Assembly: GCA_049510055.1 (NCBI GenBank)
Contig: JBEKZI010000003.1
Span: forward strand, 10,576 to 74,575
DNA: 64,000 nt
Origin: Phycisphaerae bacterium
GTDB lineage: Bacteria > Planctomycetota > Phycisphaerae > SM23-33
Direction of reading: 5' to 3'
Every line of letters starts with the position of its first letter. Position 1 is the stretch's first letter. The notes beneath the pieces were generated by a model. It was not told the DNA's origin. It made no database searches and saw only the letters and a list, made by a program, of their open reading frames with translations. Positions 9,009-31,556 of this stretch are shown here, in pieces. The position numbers were made by a program, and so were the translations under genes.

Positions 9009-9015
9009 GGGCTTT

Positions 9016-10833: not shown

Positions 10834-11811
10834 CTATGCGTTCTTGGCCGGCATGAACCGGTCGATGGCTTTCTTGGTCTGCTGGATGGCCTGGGGGTGC
10901 CGCATGATCAGCAGCTCGGCGCCGGATTGCAGCAGGACCGTCGCCGTGGCCGCCTCCCACAGAATGCCCCAGCGGTCGCGGTTTTCGTCCGTCACGCCGG
11001 CAAACGGCGGTGCCTTGGCCTCCTTGACGCGCCACGCCTCGAACCCCACGTCGCAGATCACCGGCTGGGCCAGCAGCTTGTCGCCCCGCAGCGCCGCCAG
11101 CCGCCCGCGCTCCTGAATGCTGTAGACGTACTCCAGGCCGTAGCCCAGCGCGCCGGTGGTGGGGAAAATGACGATGTCCGACAGGGGGTACCCCGCGTCA
11201 GAGCAGAGAATGTTGATCTGCTTGGCCATGTTGATGTCCAGCGGGCTTTCGGCGATGAGCTTGTGCTTGTCGGCCAGGCACACGGCCACGACGGTGCGAT
11301 AATTTTTTTCCCGCGCCGTGCCGAGCAAGCAGTTCTCGCCCTTGGCCGCCGCCGAGGCCGCCGGCAGGATCTCGTTGTCCTTCTCGTCCACGCCGCAGCC
11401 CCAGATGATCAGTGGCACGCCGACGGCCGCCAGGACTTCCTTGACGGTCTCGGCGCACTGCTGGGCCGAGCGATTGCCGGAATCCGGATGGGCGCCGGCC
11501 AGCCGCAGGCAGATCAGATCGGCCCCGAACTGGACCGCCTTTTTCGCCCAGGCGCCCGGGGAGGCCAGGGCGTCGCCGTACACCTCGCCAAGCGGCTGCG
11601 GCCAGGCGTCCCCGCCGCTGTCCCAGACCTCCACGGCGATGGCCGCCCGCCGCCCGACCGCCCCCTCGAACGCCAGGAAGGGCAGCGTGGCCGCTCCGCC
11701 GATGGCGATCGTGCTGGTCCGCGTGCCGCCTTCTTTGGCCGTCGCGCCGAGGATCATCGACGGGATCGCACCCGTCCACTTTTCCGACACGTCCGGCACG
11801 CTCGATGGCAT
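10834..11811 (-). CDS. acsD: Corrinoid iron-sulfur protein small subunit (CODH/ACS delta subunit)
   Basis: 'VLGATAKEGGTRTSTIAIGG', 'ICLRLAGAHPD', 'IIWGCG', 'MRHPQAI' match the AcsD/CdhD family across the full length. Confidence 0.9.
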   Translation of the reverse strand: MPSSVPDVSEKWTGAIPSMILGATAKEGGTRTSTIAIGGAATLPFLAFEGAVGRRAAIAVEVWDSGGDAWPQPLGEVYGDALASPGAWAKKAVQFGADLICLRLAGAHPDSGNRSAQQCAETVKEVLAAVGVPLIIWGCGVDEKDNEILPAASAAAKGENCLLGTAREKNYRTVVAVCLADKHKLIAESPLDINMAKQINILCSDAGYPLSDIVIFPTTGALGYGLEYVYSIQERGRLAALRGDKLLAQPVICDVGFEAWRVKEAKAPPFAGVTDENRDRWGILWEAATATVLLQSGAELLIMRHPQAIQQTKKAIDRFMPAKNA

Positions 11812-11826: not shown

Positions 11827-12636
11827 CTACTTTTTCACGTTTTTTGCATTTTCCGCATTTTTTGCAAAGGCGCCCGTGCCGATCTGCGGCAGGCACAGCC
11901 GGGCCAGTGCAGCGACGGCTGCTTGGGCCGCCGGACCGGCTTGGTCGTCCAACGGCACGCCCTGCGTGCAGCGGCGATGCAGGTCTTCGTCGAACGGCAC
12001 GCGAACCACGTCGCCGACGCCCGCAACGGCGAGGTCTTCAGGCAGCTCGTCCGACAGACCCGCCTGGCCGACCTTGTTCAGCACCAGCACGCGTCGGCGG
12101 ACGCGGATGGGCAGGGCGTTTGCCAACGTGGCCAGGCGACGGGCCGTGGTCAGCCCCACCGACGTCGCCTCGGCCACCAGCACCAGCACGTCCACGTCGT
12201 CCACCGTCAGGCGGGAAAGATACTCCATCCCCGCCTCGCAATCCACCACGACGGCCGGATAGGCGCCGCGAAGCTCCTTGAGGTATCGCCGCAGCAGGCC
12301 GTTGACGTAGCAATAGCATTGCGGGCCTTCCGGCCGGCCCATCGTCAGCAGGTCAAAGCCGCTGGCCTCGGTGAGCACCTGGGCCAGCCACTGGTTCATC
12401 AGCCGCTCTTTGGGGATCTCGCTGACGGCCTTGGCGGCTTGGCCCATACGGTCGCGGAGGTCGGAGATTGTGCCTTCCACCGGCACGCCCAGCGTCAAGC
12501 CGAGCGTGGAATTGGGATCGGCGTCCACCGCCAGGATGGGCTTGACCCCCGCGCGTACCAATTGCCGCAGGACCATCGCCGCCAGCGTGGTCTTGCCCGA
12601 ACCGCCCTTGCCGCTGAAGGCCACAAGTACGCCCAT
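11827..12636 (-). CDS. cooC: CooC/AcsF-type nickel-insertion ATPase (MinD/ParA family)
   Basis: 'MGVLVAFSGKGGSGKTT' deviant Walker A; ~270 aa; embedded in the acs operon. Confidence 0.85.
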   Translation of the reverse strand: MGVLVAFSGKGGSGKTTLAAMVLRQLVRAGVKPILAVDADPNSTLGLTLGVPVEGTISDLRDRMGQAAKAVSEIPKERLMNQWLAQVLTEASGFDLLTMGRPEGPQCYCYVNGLLRRYLKELRGAYPAVVVDCEAGMEYLSRLTVDDVDVLVLVAEATSVGLTTARRLATLANALPIRVRRRVLVLNKVGQAGLSDELPEDLAVAGVGDVVRVPFDEDLHRRCTQGVPLDDQAGPAAQAAVAALARLCLPQIGTGAFAKNAENAKNVKK

Positions 12637-12643: not shown

Positions 12644-14566
12644 TCACCTCCCCGCGGCCATCTCAGCCGAGACGCGCGGGAATAATTCCATGTGTGTGTG
12701 CGGGAAGAAACACGCCGACACGAACTGGTCCATGAACGTCGGGTCGGTGCTCAACTCAAAGTACGTCATTCGCTCGGCGATGCGGGCCATCTCCTCGTAG
12801 GCCTCGGTGCTCAAGGCCGCCAGCTTCGCCCCGGCCAGAGAGGTATTGCCCACGAACCGCAGACGCTCCGGCGGGATATCCGGCAGCAAGCCGATGAAGA
12901 CGGCATTGGCCAGGTTCAGGAAATTCCCGAAGGCCCCAGCCACCGCGATCTCCGAGACGTCCTGGAAGCTCATGTTCAGAGCGTGCAGAAGGACCGTCGC
13001 GGCTGCGTAGATCGCCCCCTTGGCCCGCATGAGGTTGTTGATGTCGCTCTGGGTAACCAGGACGTCCTTGGGCGTGCCCGGCGGCGAGGCCGGGACGACC
13101 AGCCATTCCGCCTCGTCGTGGCGGCCGCGGCGCATTCGCTCGCCGGTGGCTTGAGGATGCAGCCGGCCGGTCTTGTCGATCACGCCGACGCGGAGCATCT
13201 CCGCGACCAAGTCCACGTAGCCGGTGCCGCACAGGCCTACCGGGGGGGCTGAACCGACCGTGGAGTATTCCAAGATGTGATCGGCGTCGGCCAGGCGGAT
13301 GTGGTCGATGGCGCCGCCCGTGGCCCGCATGCCGCTGCGGCACTCGGCCCCCTCAAAGGCCGGGCCGGCGGAGGCGCTGGCGCAGACCAGGAAATCACGG
13401 CCGCCAATGACCATCTCGCCGTTGGTGCCGATGTCGATCAGCATCCGCACTCCCTCGCCGTGCGCCAGTCCGGTGGCGTACACGCCGGCGACGAGGTCAC
13501 CGCCCACAAAACCGGCCACGGATGGCAGACAGTACAGCAGGCCGCGAGGATGGATTCGCAGGCCGACCTCCGCCGCCGGCAAGGGCGGCAGATGATAGGC
13601 TGCTCCGACGTAGGGTTCCCTGCGGATGTTGGCCGCCGGCAGGTCGGCCAGCAGATGCGTCATGGTGGTGTTGCCGGCCGCGGTGATCAGCAGGATATCC
13701 TTAGCCTCCAGGTGGTATCGGCCGGCCAGCTCCCCGATCAGCTCGTTGAGGTCGCCGACGATCGCCTTCTGCATGGCCCGCTGGTGGCCGGCGCTCTGGG
13801 AAGCGTACATAATCCGGCGGATGACATCGGCCCCGTGCGCGGCCTGTGAGTTGTACTTGGCCGCGCGGCCCAGCGTCTGGCCGGTTCGCAGGTCCACCAG
13901 GTGGCAGACCACCGTGGTGGTGCCGATGTCGGCCGCGATGCAGAAGTCTCGCTCGGTGGTGTCGCTGGCCTGGACGTCGAGGATTTCCGTGTACTTCCCG
14001 CGATACGCGGTCACGGCCGTGACCTTCCAATTGCTTTGACGCAGCAGGCTCGGCAGGCGGCGGATGACTTCGATATCACTTCGTAATTCCTTGCAATCAA
14101 ATGTGTTACGAATCGCCTCCTCCAGTCTTTGGAGGTCAGGCGAATTATCTCCAAGGTCAGGCGGGGCCAGTTCGAGATAAATTTTGCGGACCAGGGGCGC
14201 GAGGCGGCCGATCTGCTTGCCCAGCTCTACCGGTAGCGGCGGTTCGGCGGGGACGTGTTGTGTCGCGCCGCCCAAGCGGGAGGAGGGCGGAACCTCCACC
14301 GCCAGGTCCGACTCGACGCGGCCCTGACAGGCCAGGACGTAACCTTGCTCGGCCTCCTGGGGAGTGAAGAACTCGTTGGAGCCGCCGGCCGCCGTTCCTT
14401 GCCGGACGATCACGCGGCAGCGGCCGCAGACGCCCTCACCGCCGCAGAGGGAGTCGATGAGCACGCCCGCCTTGACCGCCGCGGACAGAATCGTCGCGCC
14501 TTGCGGCACCTGAGCGGATACTCCATCGGGGCGAAACTCCACTTTGCAGGTCTTGGCCATAGTCAA
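12644..14566 (-). CDS. Reductive activator of corrinoid protein (RACo): [2Fe-2S] ferredoxin + ASKHA ATPase
   Basis: N-terminal plant-type ferredoxin 'CGGEGVCGRCRV'; ~640 aa with an actin-like ATPase region. Position between cooC and acsC. Confidence 0.8.
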   Translation of the reverse strand: MTMAKTCKVEFRPDGVSAQVPQGATILSAAVKAGVLIDSLCGGEGVCGRCRVIVRQGTAAGGSNEFFTPQEAEQGYVLACQGRVESDLAVEVPPSSRLGGATQHVPAEPPLPVELGKQIGRLAPLVRKIYLELAPPDLGDNSPDLQRLEEAIRNTFDCKELRSDIEVIRRLPSLLRQSNWKVTAVTAYRGKYTEILDVQASDTTERDFCIAADIGTTTVVCHLVDLRTGQTLGRAAKYNSQAAHGADVIRRIMYASQSAGHQRAMQKAIVGDLNELIGELAGRYHLEAKDILLITAAGNTTMTHLLADLPAANIRREPYVGAAYHLPPLPAAEVGLRIHPRGLLYCLPSVAGFVGGDLVAGVYATGLAHGEGVRMLIDIGTNGEMVIGGRDFLVCASASAGPAFEGAECRSGMRATGGAIDHIRLADADHILEYSTVGSAPPVGLCGTGYVDLVAEMLRVGVIDKTGRLHPQATGERMRRGRHDEAEWLVVPASPPGTPKDVLVTQSDINNLMRAKGAIYAAATVLLHALNMSFQDVSEIAVAGAFGNFLNLANAVFIGLLPDIPPERLRFVGNTSLAGAKLAALSTEAYEEMARIAERMTYFELSTDPTFMDQFVSACFFPHTHMELFPRVSAEMAAGR

Positions 14567-14618: not shown

Positions 14619-15971
14619 TCAGTTGTTCTTCCACTCGGTCTTGAGATAGGGCCCGATTCCCGACGCCTCCTTGGGACCCACCAGGACCTCCCAGCCGGAT
14701 TCATCCGCCAGGGGCGCGGTCATGACGGCCACCAGCCCCGGGATCACGAGGCGGCGGCGGTTCATCTTGTCCTTGGCGCCGGTGGCGTTCAAGGCGGCCG
14801 TGATCGTCTTGGGATTGAACTTGTCCGCCGCCCAGGCTGTCAGCACGCTGGTGCCTTCGGTGTCCACCGCCAGGATGCGGCAGGGGATGCGCGAGGCCTC
14901 GACTTCCGACTCAACGGCGTAATAGCTCAGCGAGAAATTCGTGGTGATCAGCAGGGGGCTGGCAGCGGAGACCTCGCCGACGTCGTAGAGCTTGGCCTCG
15001 ACCTGCACCGGCTTTTGCGGGTCGGTGTAGATGTTCTGCCGCGTGGTCAGGATCGGCAGGAGGTGGTACGGCTCCCAGGCGTCGGCGACAACCACGGCGG
15101 CGTACTTGCAGACGTACGCGCAGGCGTCCAGTGCGGCGGCGGCCTTGTCCGCCCCGCAGGCGACCGCCAGCGACGGATAGCCCAGCGGACGGAACTTTTT
15201 GTTCAAGGCGGCCCGGCGGCTCTGCGTCAGGAAGGCCAAGGCCGCTGCCGCGCTAGATACCTCGCCGGGGGAAATCAGGATGTCCTTGACGCCCTTGGCG
15301 GCCAGGGCCTCGGTGCGTTCCGCAACGGCTTCCAGCGTCCCGGCCACGCAGAGGGGGGCGGCGGCTTTTTTTGCCAAATCCGCCAACCCCGCCAGGTCGT
15401 CCGCCGCCTGGCCGGTGCAATACAGCACGGGCCGGGCGCCAGCCAGCGGCCCGGTGGCCGCGGCGGCCAGGCTGTCAAGCCGCGGACTCATCAAGACCAT
15501 CCCGATGCCCAGCTCCTTGTGGATGATTTCCGCAGCCGACCGCATCGCCTCCGGCGATCCGGATTCGTTGACCAGCGTGATCATGTCCGGGTGGAGGGTT
15601 TCCCCGACGCGGGTGAACTGCAACTGCTTGAAGGCCGCGCACGCCTGCCGCAGCATGTCCGGCGGATGGGTGTCGCAGAGTCGCAGCGCCACGGCCGGGG
15701 GATTGTAGAACTTGTCGTCGTGGCGGAACAGGGACGTTTCCTGGCCCACCTGGATCGTCTTATCCTGCGGGCCGATCTTCACCAGCCGTTGCGGCGGGGC
15801 GGAGGCCTCGCTCAGCTCCGCGCGGGCCTCCTCCGACAGGCGCGGACAGTCGTTCAATCCCGACTGGCCGGCGGCAACCTTCATCGCGAACGCCAGGCAC
15901 GTCGGTACGCCGCACTCCTTGCAGTTCGCCTTGGGGAGGCGTTTGTAAATTTCCAATCCCGTCAGGGCCAT
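14619..15971 (-). CDS. acsC: Corrinoid iron-sulfur protein large subunit (CODH/ACS gamma subunit)
   Basis: N-terminal [4Fe-4S] motif 'CKECGVPTCLAFAMKVA'. 'MALTGLEIYKRLPK' start matches the AcsC family. TIM-barrel plus B12-binding-like region. Confidence 0.9.
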   Translation of the reverse strand: MALTGLEIYKRLPKANCKECGVPTCLAFAMKVAAGQSGLNDCPRLSEEARAELSEASAPPQRLVKIGPQDKTIQVGQETSLFRHDDKFYNPPAVALRLCDTHPPDMLRQACAAFKQLQFTRVGETLHPDMITLVNESGSPEAMRSAAEIIHKELGIGMVLMSPRLDSLAAAATGPLAGARPVLYCTGQAADDLAGLADLAKKAAAPLCVAGTLEAVAERTEALAAKGVKDILISPGEVSSAAAALAFLTQSRRAALNKKFRPLGYPSLAVACGADKAAAALDACAYVCKYAAVVVADAWEPYHLLPILTTRQNIYTDPQKPVQVEAKLYDVGEVSAASPLLITTNFSLSYYAVESEVEASRIPCRILAVDTEGTSVLTAWAADKFNPKTITAALNATGAKDKMNRRRLVIPGLVAVMTAPLADESGWEVLVGPKEASGIGPYLKTEWKNN

Positions 15972-16002: not shown

Positions 16003-18183
16003 TTACATCAGCGGGCCCATGCTCAGGGCCGGATGCCCGACGCGCTGCAAGTGCTCCAGGAGCTGCTCGGACGTCGTGGCGGCGGTTTCGTCGGCGATCT
16101 TGTCCACGAAGCCCGCCAGGTTCAGTTCGGCGGCCCGCTTCTCCAGGCGCTCGCGCATGTATTCTTTGAGTTCCTTGGGCATCCAGACCAGGCGCGGCAG
16201 TCCGCCCTCGGCCCGGATGAATTTGCGGCTGGCCAGGTACAGCCGGCCCACGCCCAGGAAGCCCGGCGTTTGCGCCCCGCCGCCGACGCTGCCGGCCAGC
16301 GTCGAGAACGGCATGCCAATGGGCGTCTCGCCGGCGTATTCGCGGTTGACGACCATCACGCCGTTGGCCTCCGGCACGATGGCCAGGATGCACTCGAAGC
16401 ACCCGCAGGACGTCATGGGCGATTGCAGTAGGCTGTACGCGCTGAACCGATCCACCGAGCCGTTGGACTTTTCGTGCACGAACGTGTTGACGCCTTCCCA
16501 TTCGCCGACGGTCTCGTTGACGCATCGGCCCTTGGGCACCGGCTGATTGCAGCCGGTGGGGTTGATCTCGTACGACGCCTGGCCGTCCAGCCAGTTGTAC
16601 GCCCCGCACAGGCCCAGCCGCTCCGGCGTGATCATGCACACGTGGTTAGGCGCGAAAGACTGGCACAGCGTGCAGGAGTAGAACACGTCCACGGATTCGT
16701 CCGTCATGTCGGCCACGCGCTCGTCGCGGGCGTTGCAGATCGGCTTGGAGCGTTGGACGATCGCCGCGACCTCCTCGCTGACGGTCGTGATAGTGACGGC
16801 GATCTTGTCCACGATGCCGCCGTACTCATCGTGCAGCTTGGCGTGAATAATCTTGCCGATGTGCTTGAGGCGAAAACCGGCCGCGATGGCCGCCTTGCTG
16901 ACGCGGCACCAGATCTGGTCGCGCTGGCCGGTGTGCATGAAGCCCATCGCCCCGTTGCAGTAGCGGTGGATCTGTCGTTCCAGGATGCCCTCGAAGTCCT
17001 TTTTCATCTTTCGCCCCGCCACGCGGACGTGCACGCCCAGGTCCGAGGCGCCGCCGGCCGCTATCGCGTCCAGGTCCTGGCCGTGGACGATGATCTCGCC
17101 GTCGGTGACCTCCTCCAGGGCGGCCGAGTCCAGCAGCTCCACCGCATGAGAGTACTTGCTGCCGAACTGCGCGTGCATGTCCTCCCGGCGGATGCGCTCG
17201 CCTTCAAAGGCCGGCGAGTAAGACACGGGAATGTCGATCTCCTCGACCTTGACCTTCACGCCGCGGACCTGGATGCACGTGGGCACCAGTTGGGCGTGGT
17301 CGGTCTGGCGGACCAGCGCTTCGTAGGTCGTGACGCCCGTGGCGCGGACCTCCGGCGTGGACTCGTGATCGCTGATGACCGGGAAGCCCATCGCGATGGC
17401 CCCGGCGCCGACGGCGTACCAGTCGTCGGGGATCGGCCCGAATGTGATGCCGAAGGCGTAGATGCGGTCCTTGCAGTATTTCAGGCAGTTTTTCCATTCG
17501 CCTTTCTTGTGGCCGCCGAACATCAGCGCCCCGCGAATGGCCCAGTCCAGGATGTAGATGGCCGCGTGCGTGTCGCGCCCGACGGGCACGATGTACGTGT
17601 CCCAGCCCAGCTCCACGCCCTCGGCCACGAGCTGGTCTTTCATGCTTTTTCCGTCGCGCGAGCACAGCAGGAACGACAGGATGCTTCGCTTCTGAAGCTC
17701 GCGGACGGTGTTCACCGCGACGGCGTTGCTGGGCGCCGGCCCGAGGATCGCGGCGAAGCCCGGCATGCGCCCGTCCACCAGTTGAATGCCCAGCTCGCGG
17801 AGCACCGTGTCGGAGATGAAACCCGTGCAGCCTTCCTCGATGGGTTCCTTGTCGGCATAGCGCAGGGCGCACGTGACCTCCATGGCCAGCAGGGCGGCGA
17901 TGCCCGAGTCCAGCCCGTCGCCCAAGTAGGGCAGCCACAGGCGGTCGGCGGGCACGGCCGGTAGCAGCTCGCGGCAGTGCGCCACCACCGCCTTCATGTC
18001 GGCCAGCGTCCGGACCTCCAGCCCCATCAGGGCGTACGCCATCGGCAGGAAAAAGGCCGTCTCGGGGAACTGGACCTTGAAGTCCTCGCCCTTGGCCTTG
18101 ATGGCCTCGGCGAGCTTGGCCTCAGCCTCCCGGACGAAGCCGCCGGCGCCTCGAATGACTGCCGTAATGACCTCTTTCGACAT
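16003..18183 (-). CDS. acsB: Acetyl-CoA synthase (A-cluster subunit of CODH/ACS)
   Basis: Long stretches near-identical to Moorella AcsB: 'RKMKKDFEGILERQIHRYCNGAMGFMHTGQRD', 'VDVFYSCTLCQSFAPNHVCMITPERLGLCGA', 'PMTSCGCFECI', 'FSTLAGSVGGGAQTPGF', C-terminal 'GHPALSMGPLM'. Confidence 0.95.
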   Translation of the reverse strand: MSKEVITAVIRGAGGFVREAEAKLAEAIKAKGEDFKVQFPETAFFLPMAYALMGLEVRTLADMKAVVAHCRELLPAVPADRLWLPYLGDGLDSGIAALLAMEVTCALRYADKEPIEEGCTGFISDTVLRELGIQLVDGRMPGFAAILGPAPSNAVAVNTVRELQKRSILSFLLCSRDGKSMKDQLVAEGVELGWDTYIVPVGRDTHAAIYILDWAIRGALMFGGHKKGEWKNCLKYCKDRIYAFGITFGPIPDDWYAVGAGAIAMGFPVISDHESTPEVRATGVTTYEALVRQTDHAQLVPTCIQVRGVKVKVEEIDIPVSYSPAFEGERIRREDMHAQFGSKYSHAVELLDSAALEEVTDGEIIVHGQDLDAIAAGGASDLGVHVRVAGRKMKKDFEGILERQIHRYCNGAMGFMHTGQRDQIWCRVSKAAIAAGFRLKHIGKIIHAKLHDEYGGIVDKIAVTITTVSEEVAAIVQRSKPICNARDERVADMTDESVDVFYSCTLCQSFAPNHVCMITPERLGLCGAYNWLDGQASYEINPTGCNQPVPKGRCVNETVGEWEGVNTFVHEKSNGSVDRFSAYSLLQSPMTSCGCFECILAIVPEANGVMVVNREYAGETPIGMPFSTLAGSVGGGAQTPGFLGVGRLYLASRKFIRAEGGLPRLVWMPKELKEYMRERLEKRAAELNLAGFVDKIADETAATTSEQLLEHLQRVGHPALSMGPLM

Positions 18184-18204: not shown

Positions 18205-19032
18205 CTATCGCTTGGAAACTGCTGGGCTGGATGTTTGAGTGTAAACGGCAGCCTCGGGCCCTTCCTTTACCATGTGAGCGACCGTCTGCAACCGCCGGCA
18301 GGCGGGGCAAAGATTTTCCAACGGTACGTGCTGGGGCAAAATGGGCCGGATGTGTTCTAGTTGTCGGCAGGGCGCGAAGGGCCGGCCGCAGGATTGGCAG
18401 TGGGCTAGGTCCATGTCGGTGTTCCACGTCTGCATTCGCCGCAGCGGGCCGTCGTCGATGCTGCGAATATGTCCCGTGGGGCAGACGGCCACGCAGGCGC
18501 CGCAGCCGATGCAGACGTCCGAGGCCTCCCGGAACGGCGTGCCGACCTGCCGGTCCACGCCGCGGCTGGCAAAACCGATCGCGCCGATCTTCAGGACCTC
18601 TTCGCACACGCGCGTGCACAGGCCGCAGACGATGCACGTTTCGTCGGGGTCGTCGGTGGGGTAGGGGGTCTCCGTCACGCCGTACTTGGCCGCCAATTTC
18701 TGAATGACCTCGCTGCTGGGGCACCGCGCCAGCAGAAGCTCCAGCACCACCCGCCGGGCTTGCTGGACCGGTTGAGAGTCCGTCTGCACCTCCAGGCCGC
18801 CGCTGGCCGGATACTGGCAGGAGGCCACCAGGCCGCTTTTGCCCTCGGCGGCGACCTCCACCAGGCAGACGCGGCAGGCGGCGTAGGGCTCCAACGCCTC
18901 GTGGTGGCAAAGGGTCGGGATGTCCTTACCCAGCCTTCGACAGACCGTCAGCAAGGTCTCGCCGGGGCGGCCTTCGGTCGCCTGGCCATCCACCACAAGT
19001 TGGAATGCCTCGTCAGCCATTCTTGTTTGCAC
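18205..19032 (-). CDS. HoxU/NuoG-N-terminal-like iron-sulfur protein ([2Fe-2S] + [4Fe-4S] clusters; no hydrogenase catalytic domain)
   Basis: 'CRVCLVEV', 'CIVCGLCTRVC', 'CIGCGACVAVCPTG' and further Cys motifs. 275 aa, the size of a diaphorase gamma subunit. Confidence 0.75.
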   Translation of the reverse strand: MQTRMADEAFQLVVDGQATEGRPGETLLTVCRRLGKDIPTLCHHEALEPYAACRVCLVEVAAEGKSGLVASCQYPASGGLEVQTDSQPVQQARRVVLELLLARCPSSEVIQKLAAKYGVTETPYPTDDPDETCIVCGLCTRVCEEVLKIGAIGFASRGVDRQVGTPFREASDVCIGCGACVAVCPTGHIRSIDDGPLRRMQTWNTDMDLAHCQSCGRPFAPCRQLEHIRPILPQHVPLENLCPACRRLQTVAHMVKEGPEAAVYTQTSSPAVSKR

Positions 19033-20758
19033 CTTTTTCGCGTTTTTCGCCTAAAGAATCGTTATCGCTTCTCAAGGCCGTGCACACGCCGGCGGGGCAG
19101 CGCTTGTCCACTACGTGGGCGAAGTATTCGTCCCGGAAATATTTCAGCGTGCTGAGGACGGGGTTCGGGGCGGTCGTGCCCAGCCCGCACAGAGAGCCGG
19201 CCTTGACGCCCCGGGCCAACGTCTCCAGGCGGGCGAGGTCCTCGACGGCGCCCCGGCCGTCGCAGATTCGCGTGAGGATGCCCAGCATGTGCTTGATGCC
19301 CTCGCGGCAGGGCGTGCACTTGCCGCAAGATTCCTCCCGCAGGAAGTTCATGAAGTAGCGGGCCACGTCCACGACACACGTGCGGTCGTCCATGACGATC
19401 ATCCCGCCGGAGCCCATCATCACCCCGGCCGCGGTCAGGGACTCATAATCGACGGGCAGGTCCAGCAGGGATTCGGGGATCATGCCGGCGGGGCCGCCGG
19501 TCTGGACGGCCTTGAATTTTCGTCCCGCCGGAACGCCGCCGCCAATGTCGTCGATGATCTGTCGCAGGGGGGTGCCCATGGGCACCTCGACCAGGCCGGT
19601 GTTGCGGATCTTGCCCACCAGCGAGAAGACCTTCGTGCCCTTGGACGTTTCCGTGCCGATGCCGGCGAACCAGTCAGCGCCGCGATTGATGATCTGCGGC
19701 ACGTTGGCCCAGGTCTCCACGTTGTTGATGACGGTGGGCTTGCCCCACAGGCCGCGCTCGGCGGGGTAGGGGGGCTTGGGCGAAGGCGTGCCCAGGCGGC
19801 CTTCGACGCTGGCGATCAGGGCCGTTTCCTCACCGCAGACGAACGCCCCGGCCCCGCGGCTGACGTGCACCTGGAAATTCCACCCGCTGCCCAGGATATT
19901 CTCGCCCACGAGGCCATGTGCCTTGGCCTGCTCGATGGCGGCCAAGACGTGCCGCACGGCCAGGGGATACTCGGCCCGGACGTAAATGACGGCCTCATCG
20001 GCGCCGATGGCGTAGCCGCCGATCAGCATTCCCTCCAACACGCTGTGGGGGTTGCCCTCCAGGACCGAGCGATTCATGTAGGCGCCGGGGTCGCCCTCGT
20101 CGGCGTTGCAGACGACGTATTTCTTGTCGCCCGGCTTGTCGCGGCAGATGCGCCACTTTCTTCCGGTGGGAAAACCGCCGCCACCCCGCCCACGCAGACC
20201 GCTCCGCTCGATCTCGTCGATGACGTGCCGGGGCGAACCGCCGGCCAGGACCTTGGTCCAGGCCGCATACCCGCCGGCGGCGATGTAGTCCTCGATCGAG
20301 CAGGGGTCCACCTCCGCATTCATTCCAAGCACCAGCCGCTGCTGCCGCTCATAGAAAGGCAGACGCCGGATGTCCCGGACCGCCTCACCCGTCCGCGGAT
20401 CGCGATAGCACCACTCCTCGATGACCTTCCCGCCCAGCAGCGACTCTTTTAGCAAGCGGGGCACGTCTTTGGGGGCCGGGTGAGGGTAAAAGATGTTGCT
20501 GGGGCGCAGGATGAGCAGGGGTTCCTGCTCGCAGAATCCAAGGCACCCCGTGACGCGCAGCAGGACCTTGCCGGTCAGCCGCAATTCTTTCAGGCCGGCC
20601 TGCAAGGCCTCGACCAGGGCCCCCGAACCGTTGACCATACCGCAGGTGCCGGAAGAGACGATCAGACAAGGCTTGCCGGCGCGGGCCTTGGACAGCTTGG
20701 CCCGATGGGCCTCCAGCTTGCCCGGCGAATCGAACAATTTGGCCTTGGTGGCGATCAT
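19013..20758 (-). CDS. NuoF/HoxF-like NAD(P)H-binding flavoprotein with N-terminal thioredoxin-like [2Fe-2S] domain
   Basis: FMN/NAD and SLBB regions; N3 cluster motif 'ESCGKCTPCREG'; N-terminal 'CGMVNG...CLGFCEQ' [2Fe-2S]. No C-terminal 2x[4Fe-4S] ferredoxin domain. Confidence 0.85.
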   Translation of the reverse strand: MIATKAKLFDSPGKLEAHRAKLSKARAGKPCLIVSSGTCGMVNGSGALVEALQAGLKELRLTGKVLLRVTGCLGFCEQEPLLILRPSNIFYPHPAPKDVPRLLKESLLGGKVIEEWCYRDPRTGEAVRDIRRLPFYERQQRLVLGMNAEVDPCSIEDYIAAGGYAAWTKVLAGGSPRHVIDEIERSGLRGRGGGGFPTGRKWRICRDKPGDKKYVVCNADEGDPGAYMNRSVLEGNPHSVLEGMLIGGYAIGADEAVIYVRAEYPLAVRHVLAAIEQAKAHGLVGENILGSGWNFQVHVSRGAGAFVCGEETALIASVEGRLGTPSPKPPYPAERGLWGKPTVINNVETWANVPQIINRGADWFAGIGTETSKGTKVFSLVGKIRNTGLVEVPMGTPLRQIIDDIGGGVPAGRKFKAVQTGGPAGMIPESLLDLPVDYESLTAAGVMMGSGGMIVMDDRTCVVDVARYFMNFLREESCGKCTPCREGIKHMLGILTRICDGRGAVEDLARLETLARGVKAGSLCGLGTTAPNPVLSTLKYFRDEYFAHVVDKRCPAGVCTALRSDNDSLGEKREKGANKNG

Positions 20759-21267
20759 GTTGAAGCCGGCCTGCGCGGGCCTTTTTTGTCTCTGTCTTTT
20801 TCTTTGCCTTTACCGACGGTGCGAAGCAGGGCGTCGGCCTTGTCGGGGGTCATCTTGCCGTGGTAGGCGCCGTCCAGCACGACGATCGGCCCTATCGCGC
20901 AAGCGCCGAGGCAGTTGACGCTGACCAGTGTGAATCGGCCGTCCGCCGTGGTGCCGCCCGAGGCGACCTGCAATCGCCGCTGGAGGTGTTCCAGCATCGT
21001 CGTCGCCCCGCAGACGTGGCAGGCCGTGCCGGTGCAGACGGTAATCTCATGCTTGCCTCGCGGCGTGAGGCGGAAAGAGCGGTAGAACGTCGCCAACCCG
21101 TACAGCCTGGCCAGCGGCACGCCGAGTTCGCGGCTGACGGCCTTGAGCACCTCGGCGGGGAGATAGTCGTACTGCCCTTGGACTTCCTGGAGCAGCATCA
21201 CCAGGCTGTCGTCGCCGGCGACGTACTGGCAGCACAGCTTCGGAACGGCTTTGAGATCAACGGCCAC
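20755..21267 (-). CDS. NuoE/HoxE-like thioredoxin-fold [2Fe-2S] protein
   Basis: 'CTGTACHVCGA...CLGACAIGP' motif. ATGA overlap with the downstream nuoF-like gene. Confidence 0.8.
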   Translation of the reverse strand: MAVDLKAVPKLCCQYVAGDDSLVMLLQEVQGQYDYLPAEVLKAVSRELGVPLARLYGLATFYRSFRLTPRGKHEITVCTGTACHVCGATTMLEHLQRRLQVASGGTTADGRFTLVSVNCLGACAIGPIVVLDGAYHGKMTPDKADALLRTVGKGKEKDRDKKGPRRPAST

Positions 21268-21802
21268 GATTTCGCTCCATGGCTAAGCGGGCGGCGTCCT
21301 CTCCCGCGGCGATCTTCGCCGCGGCCTCTTGTCGCCGCCGCTTTAGCCATTCATCCACTTCGCAAAACTCCAGCGCCCCGGTGGGGCAGCCGGCCACGCA
21401 AGCCGGTTCCTCACCCTCCTGAGTGAGCTGGAGACACAGGTCGCACTTCACCATCGCCTTGCCATCGCGGGAAAGGTCAATGACGCCGAAGGGGCAAACC
21501 TGCAGGCAGAACTTGCATCCGATGCACTTGGCAGACTCGATGAGCACCGGCCCGTTCTCGACGGGGCGATGGATCGCCTCGGTCGGGCAGACCGTCATGC
21601 ACGGGGCGTCCTGGCAATGGCGGCATTGCAGCGGGATGCCGCACGTCCCGGCCGCCTCCACGTGCACGCGCGGCTGCGGCGGCGCAGCGGACGCGACGGC
21701 CTCGGCCAGGCTCTTGGCCTCGCTGTGCGCCATGGCGCACTGGAGCACGCAGGTCTTGCACCCCAGGCAGCGCTGCTCGTTGATGACAATCATCTTGGCC
21801 AT
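21257..21802 (-). CDS. cooF: CooF-type 4Fe-4S ferredoxin (CODH electron-transfer subunit)
   Basis: ATG 21802 with AAGGAG 6 nt upstream gives 'MAKMIVINEQRCLGCKTCVLQC...'. Four CxxCxxCxxxCP-type motifs. Confidence 0.8.
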   Translation of the reverse strand: MAKMIVINEQRCLGCKTCVLQCAMAHSEAKSLAEAVASAAPPQPRVHVEAAGTCGIPLQCRHCQDAPCMTVCPTEAIHRPVENGPVLIESAKCIGCKFCLQVCPFGVIDLSRDGKAMVKCDLCLQLTQEGEEPACVAGCPTGALEFCEVDEWLKRRRQEAAAKIAAGEDAARLAMERNRGR

Positions 21803-21815
21803 GGGAGGCTCCTTG

Positions 21816-23768
21816 CTAGACGGCCACGGCGGCGGCACTGGCCGTCCGCGGGGCGTAGGGGACCGGGTACATGGGGCCGGGCAGGTGCAGGGCGGCGCGC
21901 TTGGCGTCGATGTGGTCGATGATCAAGCGGGCGGCCTTGATCGGGTCGGCCTCAAAAGCGAACTTGCCGCCGAACAGTTTCTCGATGCCGCCGCAGAGGA
22001 ACTCGGTCAGTTGCGGGGCGCCCTGGACCGGCAGCGGCTCGCCCAGCACGGTGAAGACGCCCGAGGCGACGGCGTAGAAGCCGATGGCCACAGCCTTCTC
22101 GCTCATCCATTCCGGCGCGGCCGCGGCCACGGGCAGGTCGGCGATGCTTTGGCCCAGGCCTCCCTCGGCCACGACCCGGGACAGGACCACCAGGATGCGG
22201 CTGATGTCCACGCAGGAACCCAGGTGCAGCACGGGCGGAATGCCGACGGCCCGGCAGATTTCCCGCACGCCGGCCCCACCGTACTGCTCCGCCGCCTCGG
22301 GGCACAGCAGGCCGGCCTTGGCGTCGGCCACGGCGGAGCAGCCCGTCACGGCGACCAGCACGTCGTTGGCGAGCAGTTCCTTGGCCATGGCCAGGTGCCC
22401 GTAGTCGTGGGGGAGAATGCGGGGGTTGTTGCACCCGACCACGCCGGCCACGCCGCGAAGCCGGCCGGACATGACGGCGTCGTTCAGCGGCCGGTAGCTG
22501 GCGCGGTAGCGGCCACCCAGCATCGTGGCGATGTTCTCCGCCGTGAAGCCGGCCACCAGCGGCTGGCTGTCCGGCGGCACGCACGGGGCGGCCTTGCGGT
22601 TGGGGAAGTTCTCCACGGCCATGCGGACGATCCGCTTGGCGGTCGCCAGGGCCTTGGATTCGTCGAACTCCACGTGCTCGGCGTAGGGGAACTTGGCCTT
22701 GGGCGACGTGGAGATGAACTTGGTGTGGAATTTTTGGGTCAGCTTGCCCAACGCCGGGAAGACGCACTGAACGTCCACCACCATCGCGTCGACCACGCCG
22801 GTGGCCACGGCCAGCTCCTGCTGGAGGAAGTTCCCGGCCAGCGGGATGCCATGCCGCATCAGAATTTCGTTGGCCGTGCAGCAGATACCGCCCAGGTTGA
22901 TGCCGGTGGCGCCCTTGCTCTTGGCCAGGGCCAGAAGCTCCTTGTCCTGTGCGGCGGCGACGATCATCTCCGAAAGCGTCGGCTCGTGGCCGTGGACGAC
23001 GATGTTCACCATGGCCGGGTCCAGGATGCCCAGATTGGCCCGGCTGCGGACCCACGTGGGCGTGCGGAACAGCACGTCGGACAGCTCCGTGGCGATCATC
23101 GAGCCGCCCCAGCCGTCCGCCAGGGCCGCCCGGACGCCTTGAAGAATAATGTTGGTGGGTTCGTTGTCGACGCCCATGTTGGTGCGGTGCATGATCTCCA
23201 CGACCTCGCGGTCCACGCCGCGGGGCACCACGCCCGCCTCTCGCCAGCGGCGGCGCTGGTCCTGGGGGGCCCGGGCGGCGAACACCACCTCGCCGTGCTG
23301 CTGGCCGAACTGGCCGAAGGCGATCGTGGCTACGGCCAGGGCGATCTCGCGGAGGTCCTTGCCGTCGGTGGCCACGCCCAGCTCGCCGGCCAGGGCGCGG
23401 AGCTTGACGGGGTCCTTGATCTGATAGTCGCAGTCGGCCCGCTCGGCCGCCATGAGCAGCGTGTGGGCGATGTCCCGCCCGTGGTCCGAGTGGGCCGATG
23501 CCCCGGCGGCGATCATTCGCACCAGGTTCCGGGCGGCGATGATATCCGCCGTCGCCCCGCAGATGCCCTCGGAAGGCCCGTCGCCGAAGGGGTCGATGCG
23601 GCAGGGGCCCATCTTGCAGTTGCGGCAGCAGATGCCCAGTTGCCCAAAGCCGCATTGCGGCTCCATGGCCTCCTGGCGGTCCCAGGCGACCTGGAGGTCC
23701 TGGGCGGCTGCTTTGGTCAGCATGGCTATGGTTGCAGGGTCAACGCTGCGTTGTTGAGGGGTTTTCAC
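21816..23768 (-). CDS. cooS: Anaerobic Ni,Fe carbon monoxide dehydrogenase catalytic subunit
   Basis: N-terminal 'CGFGQLGICCRNCKMGPCRI' B/D-cluster motif; 650 aa; hybrid-cluster/CODH family over the full length. Confidence 0.9.
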   Translation of the reverse strand: MKTPQQRSVDPATIAMLTKAAAQDLQVAWDRQEAMEPQCGFGQLGICCRNCKMGPCRIDPFGDGPSEGICGATADIIAARNLVRMIAAGASAHSDHGRDIAHTLLMAAERADCDYQIKDPVKLRALAGELGVATDGKDLREIALAVATIAFGQFGQQHGEVVFAARAPQDQRRRWREAGVVPRGVDREVVEIMHRTNMGVDNEPTNIILQGVRAALADGWGGSMIATELSDVLFRTPTWVRSRANLGILDPAMVNIVVHGHEPTLSEMIVAAAQDKELLALAKSKGATGINLGGICCTANEILMRHGIPLAGNFLQQELAVATGVVDAMVVDVQCVFPALGKLTQKFHTKFISTSPKAKFPYAEHVEFDESKALATAKRIVRMAVENFPNRKAAPCVPPDSQPLVAGFTAENIATMLGGRYRASYRPLNDAVMSGRLRGVAGVVGCNNPRILPHDYGHLAMAKELLANDVLVAVTGCSAVADAKAGLLCPEAAEQYGGAGVREICRAVGIPPVLHLGSCVDISRILVVLSRVVAEGGLGQSIADLPVAAAAPEWMSEKAVAIGFYAVASGVFTVLGEPLPVQGAPQLTEFLCGGIEKLFGGKFAFEADPIKAARLIIDHIDAKRAALHLPGPMYPVPYAPRTASAAAVAV

Positions 23769-24884: not shown

Positions 24885-24895
24885 GGAGAGTGATC

Positions 24896-26641
<1,746 letters not shown>

Positions 26642-29196: not shown

Positions 29197-29212
29197 GTTC
29201 GCACCTATCTCA

Positions 29213-30043: not shown

Positions 30044-30052
30044 GTTTTAGGC

Positions 30053-30784: not shown

Positions 30785-30788
30785 GGGC

Positions 30789-31544: not shown

Positions 31545-31556
31545 GGTCCAACCGCC

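Follow-up and report, generated by a model that had tools for sequence, protein, structure and literature searches.

The trio of NuoE-, NuoF- and short NuoG-like genes between cooF and acsB in a Planctomycetota (Phycisphaerae-like) CODH/ACS operon probably encodes a BfuCBA bifurcating module whose third-substrate module is the CooS-CooF pair encoded upstream. By sequence the trio matches an enzyme type already proposed from Firmicutes genomes and never purified, named Codh-Bfu (Schut 2022, PMC9304861) or CodhABCSF (Feng 2025, PMC12318220), and NuoE/F/G-like COGs have been listed in the Wood-Ljungdahl context group of Ni-CODHs (Inoue 2019, PMC6344411). The CooS-CooF-flavoprotein idea that the initial annotation of this DNA put forward was thus not new; what differs from the earlier proposals is the embedding in a Planctomycetota CODH/ACS operon.

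Operon layout

In the window, by which we mean the whole stretch of 64,000 nucleotides analysed, the genes form one tightly packed minus-strand operon, cooS-cooF-NuoE-like-NuoF-like-short NuoG-like-acsB-acsC-raco-cooC-acsD-acsE, whose junctions overlap or are at most 21 nt apart; a terminator scan found no terminator-like site on the minus strand within it. The three flavoprotein ORFs lie between cooF and acsB, as initially annotated. The features are:

23925-24884, plus strand: divergent cooC-like ATPase (CbiA, E 2e-17)
24890-26641, plus strand: divergent fhs, formate-tetrahydrofolate ligase (FTHFS, E 6e-263)
21816..23768, minus strand: cooS, Ni,Fe-CO dehydrogenase catalytic subunit (Prismane, E 1e-163; TIGR01702, E 1e-193), given as the longest ORF; the start in relatives' gene calls is at ~23723, for 635 aa
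21257..21802, minus strand: cooF, polyferredoxin, 181 aa from MAKMIV... (Fer4_11, E 3e-22)
20755..21267, minus strand: bfuC (NuoE/HydC-like), [2Fe-2S] C1 cluster (PF01257, E 1e-45)
19013-20758, minus strand: bfuB (NuoF/HydB-like), whole ORF (Complex1_51K, SLBB, NADH_4Fe-4S)
19073..20758, minus strand: bfuB residues 1-562 (Pfam and NCBIfam matches; alignment to 7T2R_B)
19013..19072, minus strand: bfuB deletion scar (blastn and MAFFT against locus L168)
18205..19020, minus strand: bfuA (short NuoG/HoxU-like), 271 aa (Fer2_4 and two 4Fe-4S motifs; 9MQX_A); the ORF as listed is 18205-19032, the true ATG is at 19020
16003..18183, minus strand: acsB, acetyl-CoA synthase with N-terminal CODH-binding domain (CODH_A_N, CdhC, ACS_CODH_B_C; NF040764, E 2e-291)
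14619..15971, minus strand: acsC, corrinoid Fe-S protein large subunit (CdhD and FeS domain)
12644..14566, minus strand: RACo, reductive activator of corrinoid protein (RACo_C_ter, Raco_middle, RACo_linker, Fer2)
11827..12636, minus strand: cooC/acsF-type Ni-insertion ATPase (CbiA, AAA_31)
10834..11811, minus strand: acsD, corrinoid Fe-S protein small subunit (CdhD, E 1e-34)
10025..10813, minus strand: acsE, methyltransferase (Pterin_bind, E 3e-20; relatives' gene calls), with an approximate start placed by homology to relatives' 262-aa genes
9016-9699, minus strand: DUF3786 protein at the operon end (Pfam, NCBIfam)
7914 to ~9008, minus strand: Pta-N-terminal-like DRTGG/AAA_26 protein at the operon end (Pfam, NCBIfam)

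The last gene is followed by a terminator-like hairpin at 7763-7747 (terminator scan). The DUF3786 and DRTGG/AAA_26 genes also close the operon in loci L168 and L171, and the divergent cooC-like ATPase and fhs are shared with L001, L163 and L168. The nearest solved structures to CooS are of CODHs bound to ACS (6T7J_B and 6YTT_B from the C. autoethanogenum CODH/ACS and 9FZY_B, a CODH/ACS beta subunit, all at about E 1e-198), and the N-terminal domain of AcsB is of the CODH-binding kind.

Pfam and NCBIfam scans of ORFs selected across the 64-kb window returned no hydrogenase large or small subunit, in agreement with the initial annotation; no molybdopterin formate dehydrogenase or hydrogenase maturase was among the same ORFs. 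The single radical-SAM/BATS gene is BioB.

Identity of the flavoprotein subunits

Judged by sequence, the three genes encode BfuC, BfuB and BfuA, a module belonging to the HydABC family of electron-bifurcating flavin/iron-sulfur enzymes. The best solved matches of BfuB are bifurcating enzymes (NiFe-HydB 7T2R_B, E 7e-211; HydB 7Q4V_B; NfnB 9N5U_B; WorB 9MQX_B), with Nqo1 (E 1e-117) and FdsB (1e-101 to 1e-113) far behind. Residue-by-residue alignment to 7T2R_B places all five B2 ligands (C461, C499, H548, C554, C559); C461, H548, C554 and C559 are conserved in 169 of 169 BfuBs, and the B2 His has been described as diagnostic of bifurcating BfuB. Residues 1-562 hold an N-terminal thioredoxin-like domain, the FMN/NADH site, the B1 [4Fe-4S] cluster and the B2 ligands. 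The additional N-terminal [2Fe-2S] domain of the initial annotation is indeed present, as a weak profile match with a variant B5 ligand pattern, S35-x3-C39 in place of C-x4-C. The bifurcation signatures A..M and GAGAF of Losey 2020 are found; GGPSGG reads GGPAG- in this protein, and D229N is also present. BfuC is closest to NiFe-HydC (7T2R_C, E 3e-40) and has its C-x4-C...C-x3-C ligands in place.

BfuA is, by sequence, invariant Cys pattern and predicted fold, a WorA-type adaptor. It has an A1 [2Fe-2S] and A2 and A4 [4Fe-4S] sites, no A3, a Cys4 Zn finger (C208, C211, C238, C241) and a C-terminal helix (239-252), and 16 Cys are invariant across 35 homologs. It matches WorA (9MQX_A) over its full length at E 1e-47, and its AF2 model (pLDDT 89.6) superposes on 9MQX_A in Foldseek with TMq 0.82, TMt 0.89 and rmsd 2.5 A, compared with E 7e-15 and TM 0.56-0.64 for HoxU (5XF9_B). 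CooF, with 16 Cys in four 4Fe-4S motifs, is a homolog of WorS and HycB3/4, matching HycB3/4 (E 5e-27) and WorS (9MQX_E, E 7e-23) over its full length. The initial Hox-type assignment of the trio needs correcting, since the matches to 7T2R_B and WorA and the lack of a His-ligated A3 place it with BfuABC/HydABC.

Synteny with CODH and ACS in other genomes

The synteny survey suggested initially found the CODH/ACS-embedded arrangement, in either of two gene orders, at 11 more distinct loci. CooS-CooF-BfuC-BfuB-BfuA-AcsB is found at L001, L081/L082, L163, L164, L168, L110, L136, L172 and L173, and CooF-BfuCBA-CooS-AcsB at L075 (a Pirellulales MAG) and L171. On an Anaerolineae contig (L170), CooF-CooS-CooF-BfuCBA stands by itself, and genes for ACS, RACo and CoFeSP are absent from the cluster. 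In an exact-protein look-up of the closest BfuA/BfuB homologs, all eight distinct contexts were CODH-linked (BfuA identity 49-100% where measured), and in every gene-order variant CooF or CooS adjoins the bfu genes. This conserved synteny and the WorA-type docking subunit argue for a CooS-CooF-flavoprotein complex, whose physical existence we infer from gene order and homology. In a neighbour-joining tree the CODH-linked BfuBs are not monophyletic and fall into at least three groups, so that either Bfu and CODH may have become associated more than once or the BfuB tree lacks resolution.

A deletion in bfuB removes the B3/B4 domain

The NuoF homolog lacks a C-terminal 2x[4Fe-4S] domain, as initially reported, because 158 bp that encode this B3/B4 domain in relatives are missing at the junction 19072|19071. 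They correspond to nt 9792-9949 of L168 (blastn and MAFFT), and alignment with L001, L081, L163 and L164 agrees. The scar is an out-of-frame 19-codon tail (RSDNDSLGEKREKGANKNG) and a stop codon; the tail is made of what were the 3' end of bfuB and the spacer, its frame running past the old stop codon. The truncated allele is real in nature: 8 contigs encode an identical 581-aa protein, and the loci L167, L174, L175 and L176, which come from four sample accessions, are 99.97-100% identical to the window across the junction.

B3/B4 is retained in the 91%-identical relative L168 and in all relatives with a fully readable BfuB (617-636 aa), down to ~55% identity. By these comparisons the frameshifting deletion is recent and specific to this strain, and the absence of the domain does not characterise the system, whose design therefore cannot be NAD-only operation. 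Since the loss is strain-specific, the ancestral design would be bifurcation to NAD+ and ferredoxin; of the supercomplex coupled directly to NAD(P)H that the initial annotation predicted, the complex is supported by synteny and the WorA-type adaptor, and the coupling to NAD(P)H alone is not.

That the module in this strain is a recently disabled remnant, with the 158-bp frameshift a loss of function, CODH/ACS running on ferredoxin via CooF or CooS alone and bfuCBA being lost, is possible though rather unlikely. In favour of this reading, the junction is out of frame and read into spacer, and BfuB departs from columns conserved at >=95% at 5 positions, among them the S and the G of GGPSGG that are otherwise 100% conserved; the sister L168 departs at 1, which is also the median for 169 BfuBs. 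Lineage-specific replacements in BfuB number 35, compared with 13 for L168 (p=0.002). However, the lineage is faster overall (83 against 53 replacements outside the bfu genes), RACo shows as much asymmetry as BfuB, and comparison with L168 gives a dN/dS of 0.17-0.23, inside the span of values for cooC, acsD and RACo. The three ORFs are otherwise intact with all remaining cofactor ligands, the allele is identical on the 8 contigs, and the new bfuB stop codon overlaps the bfuA ATG, so that translational coupling is kept.

Other explanations for the trio

A simple non-bifurcating HoxEFU-like diaphorase passing CooS-CooF electrons straight to NAD(P)+, a three-subunit analogue of CooS-CooF-FNOR, is unlikely. 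In its favour, the enzyme of this strain lacks the ferredoxin-binding B3/B4 domain, what remains has the structure of a NuoE/F/G-like wire linked to NADH, electron flow from CO to NAD+ is downhill (potentials from PMC9304861), and HoxE and HoxU appear among the NCBIfam matches to the trio, below their own cut-offs. Against this stand the closest solved relatives, all bifurcating Bfu enzymes and not Hox, the B2 His and Cys ligands, a BfuA with the WorA Zn finger in place of the A3 cluster used by HoxU-type subunits, and B3/B4 in every relative with a fully readable BfuB. Furthermore, Wor-Bfu reduces neither acceptor without the other, and hence no NAD+ without ferredoxin (PMC9304861), which suggests that the truncated enzyme may be inactive.

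It is very unlikely that the module serves another step than CooS, supplying RACo/CoFeSP activation or methylene-THF reduction with low-potential electrons: bfu is co-operonic with RACo and acsCDE and divergent from fhs, and RACo shares the lineage-specific acceleration of BfuB, but RACo has its own [2Fe-2S] domain, the Anaerolineae contig keeps the module with CooS and CooF alone, and CooF or CooS stays beside bfu in all variants. Least probable of all is a diaphorase for a hydrogenase or formate dehydrogenase encoded elsewhere and placed in the acs operon for co-regulation only, for although the window covers 64 kb of the genome and BfuABC modules mostly serve [FeFe] hydrogenases (PMC9304861), BfuA is of the short adaptor type and carries no catalytic domain, the homologs closest to it adjoin CooF/CooS in every sampled context in three arrangements, bfuCBA sits between cooF and cooS in L075 and L171, and the ORFs scanned in the window include no hydrogenase, FDH or maturase.

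Proposed electron path

In a Codh-Bfu enzyme, electrons would pass from the C-, B- and D-clusters of CooS through the four [4Fe-4S] clusters of CooF to A4, A2 and A1 of BfuA and on to B1 and FMN of BfuB, with CooF docked by BfuA via the Zn finger and C-terminal helix, like WorA on WorS. Where BfuB is full-length, as in the relatives, NAD(H) would react at FMN and ferredoxin at the C-terminal B3/B4 clusters, and the BfuBC core would link both carriers to the interconversion of CO2 and CO by CODH/ACS. Both bifurcation and its direction are predictions: the enzyme would bifurcate upon acetyl-CoA or CO oxidation and confurcate upon CO2 reduction, and half of the carbonyl-branch electrons could then stem from NADH. 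The CO2/CO couple (-520 mV) is more negative than ferredoxin, so the need for bifurcation is not obvious, and the authors who described the family question it too (PMC9304861).

In this strain, the exact removal of B3/B4 would cut the ferredoxin branch, leaving either a downhill CO:NAD+ wire or a stalled enzyme, and CODH/ACS would then trade electrons with ferredoxin directly via CooF or CooS. The missing B3/B4, one of the hallmarks of a bifurcating core, the altered and otherwise 100%-conserved GGPSGG and the non-canonical first ligand of B5 speak against bifurcation in this strain.

Comparison with known enzymes

The published Codh-Bfu/CodhABCSF clusters share BfuC, BfuB, a short BfuA, CooS and CooF (the WorS homolog) interleaved in one cluster, and the proposed logic of CO as third substrate of an NAD+/ferredoxin bifurcating core. 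They comprise 4 sequences, described as 'only in Firmicutes', with a stand-alone CODH whose genes lie between bfuB and bfuA, whereas ours are from Planctomycetota (and an Anaerolineae contig), are ordered cooS-cooF-bfuCBA, lack B3/B4 in this strain and lie inside the acs operon directly upstream of acsB, so that the CODH concerned is apparently the ACS partner.

By analogy, Codh-Bfu probably works like WorABCSL, the bifurcating tungsten aldehyde oxidoreductase of Acetomicrobium mobile (PDB 9MQX), with a polyferredoxin wire plugged into BfuA. BfuA, BfuB, BfuC and CooF correspond to WorA, WorB, WorC and WorS, and WorA and our BfuA both lack A3 and have the Cys4 Zn finger and terminal helix; the catalytic subunit here is the Ni,Fe-CODH CooS with ACS attached, not tungstopterin WorL. 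HydABC (T. maritima, A. woodii, T. kivui) and NiFe-HydABCSL (A. mobile, 7T2R/7T30) have the same BfuBC core (FMN, B1, His/Cys B2, C1), but our system has neither an H-cluster domain nor NiFe subunits, its BfuA is shortened to the N-terminal cluster domain and Zn finger, and B3/B4 are missing in this strain. The HoxEFU diaphorase of bidirectional NAD-linked [NiFe] hydrogenases is distantly homologous in all three subunits through shared NuoE/F/G ancestry; here there is no HoxYH, BfuA has no His-ligated cluster, and BfuB has the B2 site and bifurcation-type signature residues.

The truncated allele may behave like the CooS-CooF-FNOR clusters of clostridia and Geobacter, in which CO electrons also reach an NAD(P)+-reducing flavoprotein via CooS and CooF, although FNOR consists of one FAD protein from an unrelated family and its gene is absent here. 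NAD-only operation has a precedent among relatives of Bfu enzymes: the HydAB(C) enzymes of Syntrophus and Syntrophomonas are NADH-dependent and do not bifurcate (Losey 2020, PMC7311640), and their NuoF-like beta subunits have fewer Fe-S domains and work with NADH alone. Those beta subunits form a separate clade with T/S..K and Y and no GGPSG, whereas the BfuB described here has the bifurcating-type A..M and F residues and lost its domain by recent deletion.

Organization of the CODH/ACS operon

Within a window of about 65% G+C, Pfam and NCBIfam matches place cooS through the acs genes in a single long and tightly packed row on the minus strand.

Genes of the operon, in operon order
21816-23768, minus strand: CooS (Prismane E 1e-163, TIGR01702 E 1e-193)
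21257-21838 as open reading frame, real start MAKMIV at 21802, minus strand: CooF-type polyferredoxin (Pfam/NCBIfam)
20755-21267, minus strand: bfuC, NuoE/HoxE/HydC-like [2Fe-2S] protein (PF01257 E 1e-45)
19013-20758, minus strand: bfuB, NuoF/HydB-like flavoprotein (Complex1_51K E 3e-46, SLBB, NADH_4Fe-4S E 2e-32)
18205-19032, ATG at 19020, minus strand: bfuA, short NuoG/HoxU-like Fe-S protein (Fer2_4 and two 4Fe-4S motifs)
16003-18183, minus strand: AcsB, CODH-binding N-domain present
After AcsB, minus strand, in this order: AcsC, RACo, CooC, AcsD, AcsE, a small open reading frame, a DUF3786 protein and a DRTGG protein

The genes for CooS, CooF, the trio and AcsB are contiguous, overlapping by 11 nt (cooF/bfuC), 4 nt (bfuC/bfuB) and 8 nt (bfuB/bfuA), with the other junctions at most 21 nt apart, which bears out the initial annotation in placing the trio inside one CODH-ACS operon. 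A terminator scan found no minus-strand terminator-like site between 23768 and 7914, and a terminator-like site lies 3' of the operon at 7763-7747. Upstream, on the opposite strand, a cooC-like gene and fhs run in the divergent direction. The end of the operon (7914-9699) encodes the DUF3786 protein and a protein resembling the Pta N-terminus, both found at the same place in L168, a relative with full-length bfuB, and in L171, a JGI contig. The match of the Pta-like protein to phosphate acetyltransferase is confined to the N-terminal half (AAA_26/DRTGG), and the catalytic domain is absent.

The operon has the makeup of a bacterial CODH/ACS operon, encoding AcsB, AcsC, AcsD, AcsE, RACo, CooC and an ACS-associated type of CODH. 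CooS is closest to the ACS-complexed CODHs 6YTT_B and 9FZY_B (CODH/ACS beta subunits, E about 1e-198). Since it is nearest to ACS-bound enzymes and is the sole CODH of the operon, and since AcsB carries the CODH-binding N-domain, CooS appears to be the partner of ACS.

BfuB and BfuC are closest to bifurcating enzymes

Searched against all solved structures, BfuB matched NiFe-HydB best (7T2R_B, E 7e-211), followed by A. woodii HydB (3e-200), NfnB (4e-198), WorB of the tungsten aldehyde oxidoreductase (9MQX_B, 1e-195) and then the HydB proteins of T. kivui and T. maritima; far behind came Nqo1 of complex I (8e-117) and the beta subunits of NAD-dependent formate dehydrogenases (1e-101 to 1e-113). 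The top solved matches of BfuC were NiFe-HydC (7T2R_C, E 3e-40), NfnC and HydC, and its C1 [2Fe-2S] ligands (C-x4-C...C-x3-C) are present.

The FMN/NADH site and B1 [4Fe-4S] cluster domains of BfuB are present, and residue alignment to 7T2R_B recovered all five ligands of the B2 [2Fe-2S] cluster (C461, C499, H548, C554, C559), of which the His and three of the Cys occur in 169 of 169 collected BfuBs. The corresponding ligands in A. mobile are C438, C476 (C476/T), H525, C531 and C536, and the B2 His is absent from non-bifurcating homologs (Schut et al. 2022, PMC9304861). Bifurcating beta subunits have further been described by A/E..M close to where NADH binds, an F close to FMN, and GGPSG (Losey 2020, PMC7311640). 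Window BfuB is of the bifurcating type in the first two (GAYM and GAGAF), and it alone reads GGPAG- in place of GGPSGG, the S and the following G being invariant in the other 167 BfuBs.

The extra N-terminal [2Fe-2S] domain initially ascribed to the NuoF homolog is there (the putative B5 site, where Pfam gave a weak thioredoxin-like match below cut-off), but its ligand set is altered: S35-x3-C39 replaces C-x4-C, so that the first ligand is Ser35 and the second is shifted, while C72-x3-C76 is kept. As this variant is common to about 15-23 of the 169 BfuBs, Glu_synthase-linked ones included, it is not specific to the strain.

BfuA resembles WorA and CooF resembles WorS

Among solved structures BfuA matches best, and over its whole length, WorA of the bifurcating tungsten aldehyde oxidoreductase WorABCSL (9MQX_A, E 1e-47). 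HoxU is a much more distant match (5XF9_B, E 7e-15; rank 38 by fold, TM 0.56/0.64), and the NCBIfam HoxU model gave 99 bits where its cut-off is 333. Across 35 aligned homologs, the most distant at 41% identity, 16 Cys of BfuA are invariant: four belong to the A1 [2Fe-2S] cluster, eight to two [4Fe-4S] clusters, and C208/C211/C238/C241 form a Cys4 site; the motif of the His-ligated A3 cluster, H-x3-C-x2-C-x5-C, is absent from BfuA in the same alignment. An AlphaFold2 model (pLDDT 89.6) places a terminal helix (239-252) directly after the Cys4 site and superposes on 9MQX_A with TM 0.82/0.89 and an rmsd of 2.5 A. WorA itself lacks A3, has a Zn finger and uses a C-terminal helix to recruit the polyferredoxin WorS (Feng et al. 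2025, PMC12318220). CooF has four [4Fe-4S] Cys motifs and is a full-length homolog of WorS (9MQX_E, E 7e-23) and of the nanowire subunits HycB3/4. By its modelled fold and its match to WorA, BfuA is predicted to be a WorA-type adaptor that docks a polyferredoxin of the WorS/CooF kind.

The trio had been read as the diaphorase module of bidirectional and bifurcating hydrogenases. Its best matches are to HydABC, NfnB and WorB, the small Fe-S subunit is not HoxU-like, with E 7e-15 to HoxU, and HoxYH were not found among the window open reading frames scanned. The trio should be filed as a module of the Codh-Bfu type, a HydABC-family flavin/Fe-S core predicted to pair with CODH, rather than as a Hox-like diaphorase; this kind has been published as a hypothesis.

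Alternative partners of the trio

Among the open reading frames selected across the 64-kb window there are no hydrogenase subunits, molybdopterin formate dehydrogenase or hydrogenase maturase, in agreement with the earlier remark that no hydrogenase catalytic subunit is nearby, and neither hoxY nor hoxH is found in the scanned window ORFs or in the gene calls of the relatives' loci. A radical-SAM/BATS gene at 56576-57898, a candidate HydG/HydE maturase, is BioB (TIGR00433, E 3e-100). An origin of the trio as the diaphorase of an FdsGB-type formate dehydrogenase was likewise rejected, since FdsB matches at only 1e-101 to 1e-113 against 7e-211 for the HydB type, and no molybdopterin FdhA/FdsA was found in the window. 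In CooS-CooF-FNOR systems an FAD/NAD(P)-dependent oxidoreductase adjoins cooS-cooF, whereas the operon described here has no FNOR gene beside these two.

Linkage to CODH/ACS in related loci

We found the association of CooS/CooF with Bfu in 11 further distinct loci that carry AcsB, and in one stand-alone locus. Most follow a shared order, cooC (divergent), then cooS-cooF-bfuC-bfuB-bfuA-acsB-acsC-raco-cooC-acsD-acsE-orf-DUF3786.

Related loci with CODH-linked Bfu genes (BfuB identity is to the window protein)
L168, 393-kb JGI contig: shared order; 91% nucleotide identity to the window
L081/L082: shared order; BfuB 78%
L001, uncultured Phycisphaerae MAG: shared order; BfuB 71%
L163: shared order; BfuB 71%
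L164: shared order; BfuB 66%
L110, L136: shared order; BfuB 58-59%
L172, L173: shared order
L075 8898-21275 (Pirellulales MAG) and L171 5186-15775 (JGI contig): second order, cooF-bfuC-bfuB-bfuA-cooS-acsB, with bfu between cooF and cooS
L170 2531-8759: stand-alone cooF-like gene, cooS, cooF, bfuC, bfuB (636 aa), bfuA; no ACS genes; BfuA named Anaerolineae

The stand-alone locus L170, which has two CooF-type genes, represents a Codh-Bfu from beyond Firmicutes. In L173 (5711-12507 of a 105-kb ENA contig) bfuB, acsB, acsC and other genes are broken into several short open reading frames, a pattern more suggestive of frameshift errors in a long-read assembly than of biology.

How tightly Bfu and CODH appear to be linked depends on the search. 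For the closest BfuA and BfuB homologs, exact-protein look-ups gave CODH-linked contexts in eight of eight distinct cases (BfuA identity 49-100% where measured). By BfuB similarity alone, a CODH or ACS gene was present in 5 of the 160 loci listed (L001, L075, L110, L136 and L082, the contig of the last being also reached through the look-up of the protein P0003). Pattern scans of genomes and metagenomes with BfuB were dominated by the generic motif GGMIVMDD; most of the loci listed were unrelated Bfu loci, the nearest relatives were not among them, and the exact-protein look-ups were more informative. In a word-indexed search for BfuB homologs the top match shown was 78% identical, and neither the 90%-identical full-length BfuB of L168 nor the exact protein was among the matches, though both are in the collection. 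In a neighbour-joining tree of 169 BfuBs the CODH-linked sequences were not monophyletic and fell into at least three groups. BfuB is too conserved (54-63% identity in most pairs) for this tree to be decisive, and we therefore took it as unresolved, not as evidence, and relied on BfuA homology and synteny. These two lines, the synteny in 11 further AcsB loci and the WorA-type BfuA, favour the CooS-CooF-flavoprotein supercomplex initially proposed, but the idea itself had already been published as a hypothesis.

A natural deletion of BfuB's C-terminal domain

The closest homologs of BfuB are 622-623 aa long and carry two Fer4 motifs after ...RCPAGVCTAL, exactly where the window protein departs into RSDNDSLGEKREKGANKNG and then stops. 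Every relative with a fully readable BfuB (617-636 aa) keeps this B3/B4 domain. Compared with L168 the window is collinear over the whole operon at about 91% identity, except that 158 bp (L168 nt 9792-9949) are missing. A loss of 158 bp, a length that three does not divide, changes the frame, and the old last codons and old stop (FEAITIR, stop) are read out of frame; the truncated protein now stops at a TGA overlapping the start codon of bfuA (ATG at 19020). Microhomology at the junction is limited to 2 nt (GA). What is taken out is precisely the 2x[4Fe-4S] ferredoxin-like domain, presumed to be the ferredoxin site, while C559, the last of the B2 ligands, stays in place three residues ahead of the breakpoint. 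The absence of this domain had thus been called correctly for the window, where it comes about through the deletion, and the domain is present in relatives.

Two other accounts of the truncation were ruled out. An in-frame loss of the domain does not fit the length of the deletion or the tail, which is out-of-frame read-through. An assembly artefact is contradicted by the exact 581-aa protein on eight contigs and by junction matches from four samples, three from JGI and one from ENA: across the junction, L174 (a 1.07-Mb JGI contig), L175 (from a different JGI sample) and L176 (ENA) each show 100% identity to the window, and L167, from the fourth sample, shows 99.97%. The deletion is natural and environmentally widespread.

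Selection on the truncated module

The remaining cofactor ligands are intact in BfuC, BfuB(1-562) and BfuA. Against L168, dN/dS is 0.23 for bfuC, 0.17 for bfuB and 0.21 for bfuA, within the range of the operon (cooS 0.12, acsB 0.05, cooC 0.22, acsD 0.16). Window BfuB departs from five columns conserved at 95% or more, compared with one in L168 and a median of one in all 169 BfuBs; one of these five, G256A, is common to the window and L168, and another two fall on the S and following G of GGPSGG, unvaried in the other 167 sequences. Polarized by two outgroups, BfuB has 35 replacements specific to the window lineage and 13 specific to L168 (p=0.002). The excess in RACo (12644-14566) is alike, 28 against 10 (p=0.005), and the non-bfu genes pooled have 83 against 53, the lineage being faster overall, so that altered or relaxed constraint on BfuB is only suggested. 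Replacements in CooS, AcsB, AcsD and BfuA are symmetric between the two.

Discussion

The Bfu family was defined by Schut et al. 2022 (PMC9304861), whose uncharacterised 'Codh-Bfu' type comprised four sequences, 'only in Firmicutes', with the CODH genes sandwiched between bfuB and bfuA, unlike the cooS-cooF-bfuC-bfuB-bfuA order seen here. Feng et al. 2025 (PMC12318220) proposed for this 'CodhABCSF' the architecture of WorABCSL, with WorS replaced by CooF, and described the enzyme as never purified. NuoG/F/E-like families (COG1034, COG1894, COG1905) were placed, uninterpreted, in the Wood-Ljungdahl context group of Ni-CODHs by Inoue et al. 2019 (PMC6344411), and 'nuo' genes are drawn in CODH/ACS neighbourhoods, with nothing further, in the Hakuba actinobacteria paper. 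Our literature search found no description of the module in a CODH/ACS operon or in Planctomycetota, and among papers on Phycisphaerae or Planctomycetes, the Wood-Ljungdahl pathway and NuoF/CooF no interpretation of the arrangement. Relative to the literature found, the new elements are the integration into the CODH/ACS operon, the occurrence in Planctomycetota and on a contig of Anaerolineae, the conservation of two gene orders and the deletion of the presumed ferredoxin domain. The hypothetical Codh-Bfu class, so far made up of four sequences from Firmicutes, thereby gains members in Planctomycetota and Chloroflexota.

By homology to WorABCSL, the end of BfuA that holds the Zn finger and helix would be where CooF binds, and CooF would pass electrons between the D-cluster of CooS and the A4-A2-A1-B1-FMN chain. 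The BfuBC core of the full-length relatives would then couple the electrons of CooF to NAD(H) at FMN and to ferredoxin at B3/B4. We infer a physical CooS-CooF-BfuABC complex with CO-dependent bifurcation, in which the reductions of NAD+ and ferredoxin would depend on each other.

Schut et al. (PMC9304861) tabulate physiological potentials of -520 mV for CO2/CO, about -280 mV for NAD and about -500 mV for ferredoxin. The pair of NADH and reduced ferredoxin accordingly averages about -390 mV on these values. On general thermodynamic grounds, such a potential suffices for CO2 reduction only when CO is several orders of magnitude below CO2, and the CODH/ACS tunnel together with the exergonic condensation at the A-cluster keep CO that far below CO2.

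In the window strain the ferredoxin branch would be cut, with two conceivable outcomes. Either the truncated enzyme would pass electrons from CO downhill to NAD+, in effect the model of the initial annotation, or it would stall and CODH/ACS would use ferredoxin directly, as might be expected from the tight coupling of Wor-Bfu (Schut et al. 2022, PMC9304861). Direct coupling of CO/CO2 to NAD(P)H alone is one possible outcome for this allele, which is without B3/B4, but does not describe the relatives, which keep the ferredoxin domain.

A broader proposal, which we offer tentatively and regard as somewhat doubtful, is that in Planctomycetota and at least some Chloroflexota CODH/ACS itself, and not just a monofunctional CODH, is hard-wired via CooF to BfuABC. 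In such an ACS-CODH-CooF-BfuABC assembly the carbonyl branch would be driven by NADH and reduced ferredoxin together, or would yield both in reverse, and the window strain would be a natural B3/B4 deletion mutant, NAD-only and ferredoxin-independent. How much energy the Wood-Ljungdahl pathway has to spend is set by the electron donor of CODH/ACS. The pathway runs at the thermodynamic limit of life, and standard models of it treat CODH/ACS as ferredoxin-only, with no share for NADH. If the proposal is true this energy balance changes: half of the electrons for converting CO2 to the carbonyl would come from NADH, and in reverse both NADH and reduced ferredoxin would be recovered from acetyl-CoA oxidation. 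The full-length operon of L168 and the natural domain-deletion allele of the window are concrete operons for purification, and the latter bears on whether B3/B4 is the ferredoxin site of Bfu enzymes and whether NAD+ can be reduced without it.

Other Bfu loci and the surroundings of the operon

P0025 and P0028, next in similarity among the BfuBs (64-65% identity), come from another kind of cluster, which has a Glu_synthase-domain gene. In L165 (339-5025) and L166 (7261-11947) bfuC-bfuB and a short bfuA (237 aa) are followed by a 526-aa Glu_synthase (PF01645) protein, adjoining glutamine synthetase in L166, and this cluster may be a Bfu-coupled glutamate synthase. A gene for a CooF-like polyferredoxin directly after bfuA, with no CooS within the flank, was seen in many Bfu loci of Myxococcota, Acidobacteriota and other MAGs, namely L021, L029, L043, L049, L051, L055, L069-L072, L074, L076 and L080; these may be Wor-Bfu-like or of another type.

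Adjoining fhs, at 26713-40016 of the window, an 827-aa open reading frame without any match in Pfam precedes three genes of the prepilin type (N_methyl; 29213-30043, 30053-30784 and 31557-32096), with a fourth open reading frame (30789-31544), also lacking a Pfam match, among them, and these are followed by a T2SS F protein and three T2SSE-type ATPases, forming a type II secretion or type IV pilus-like locus.
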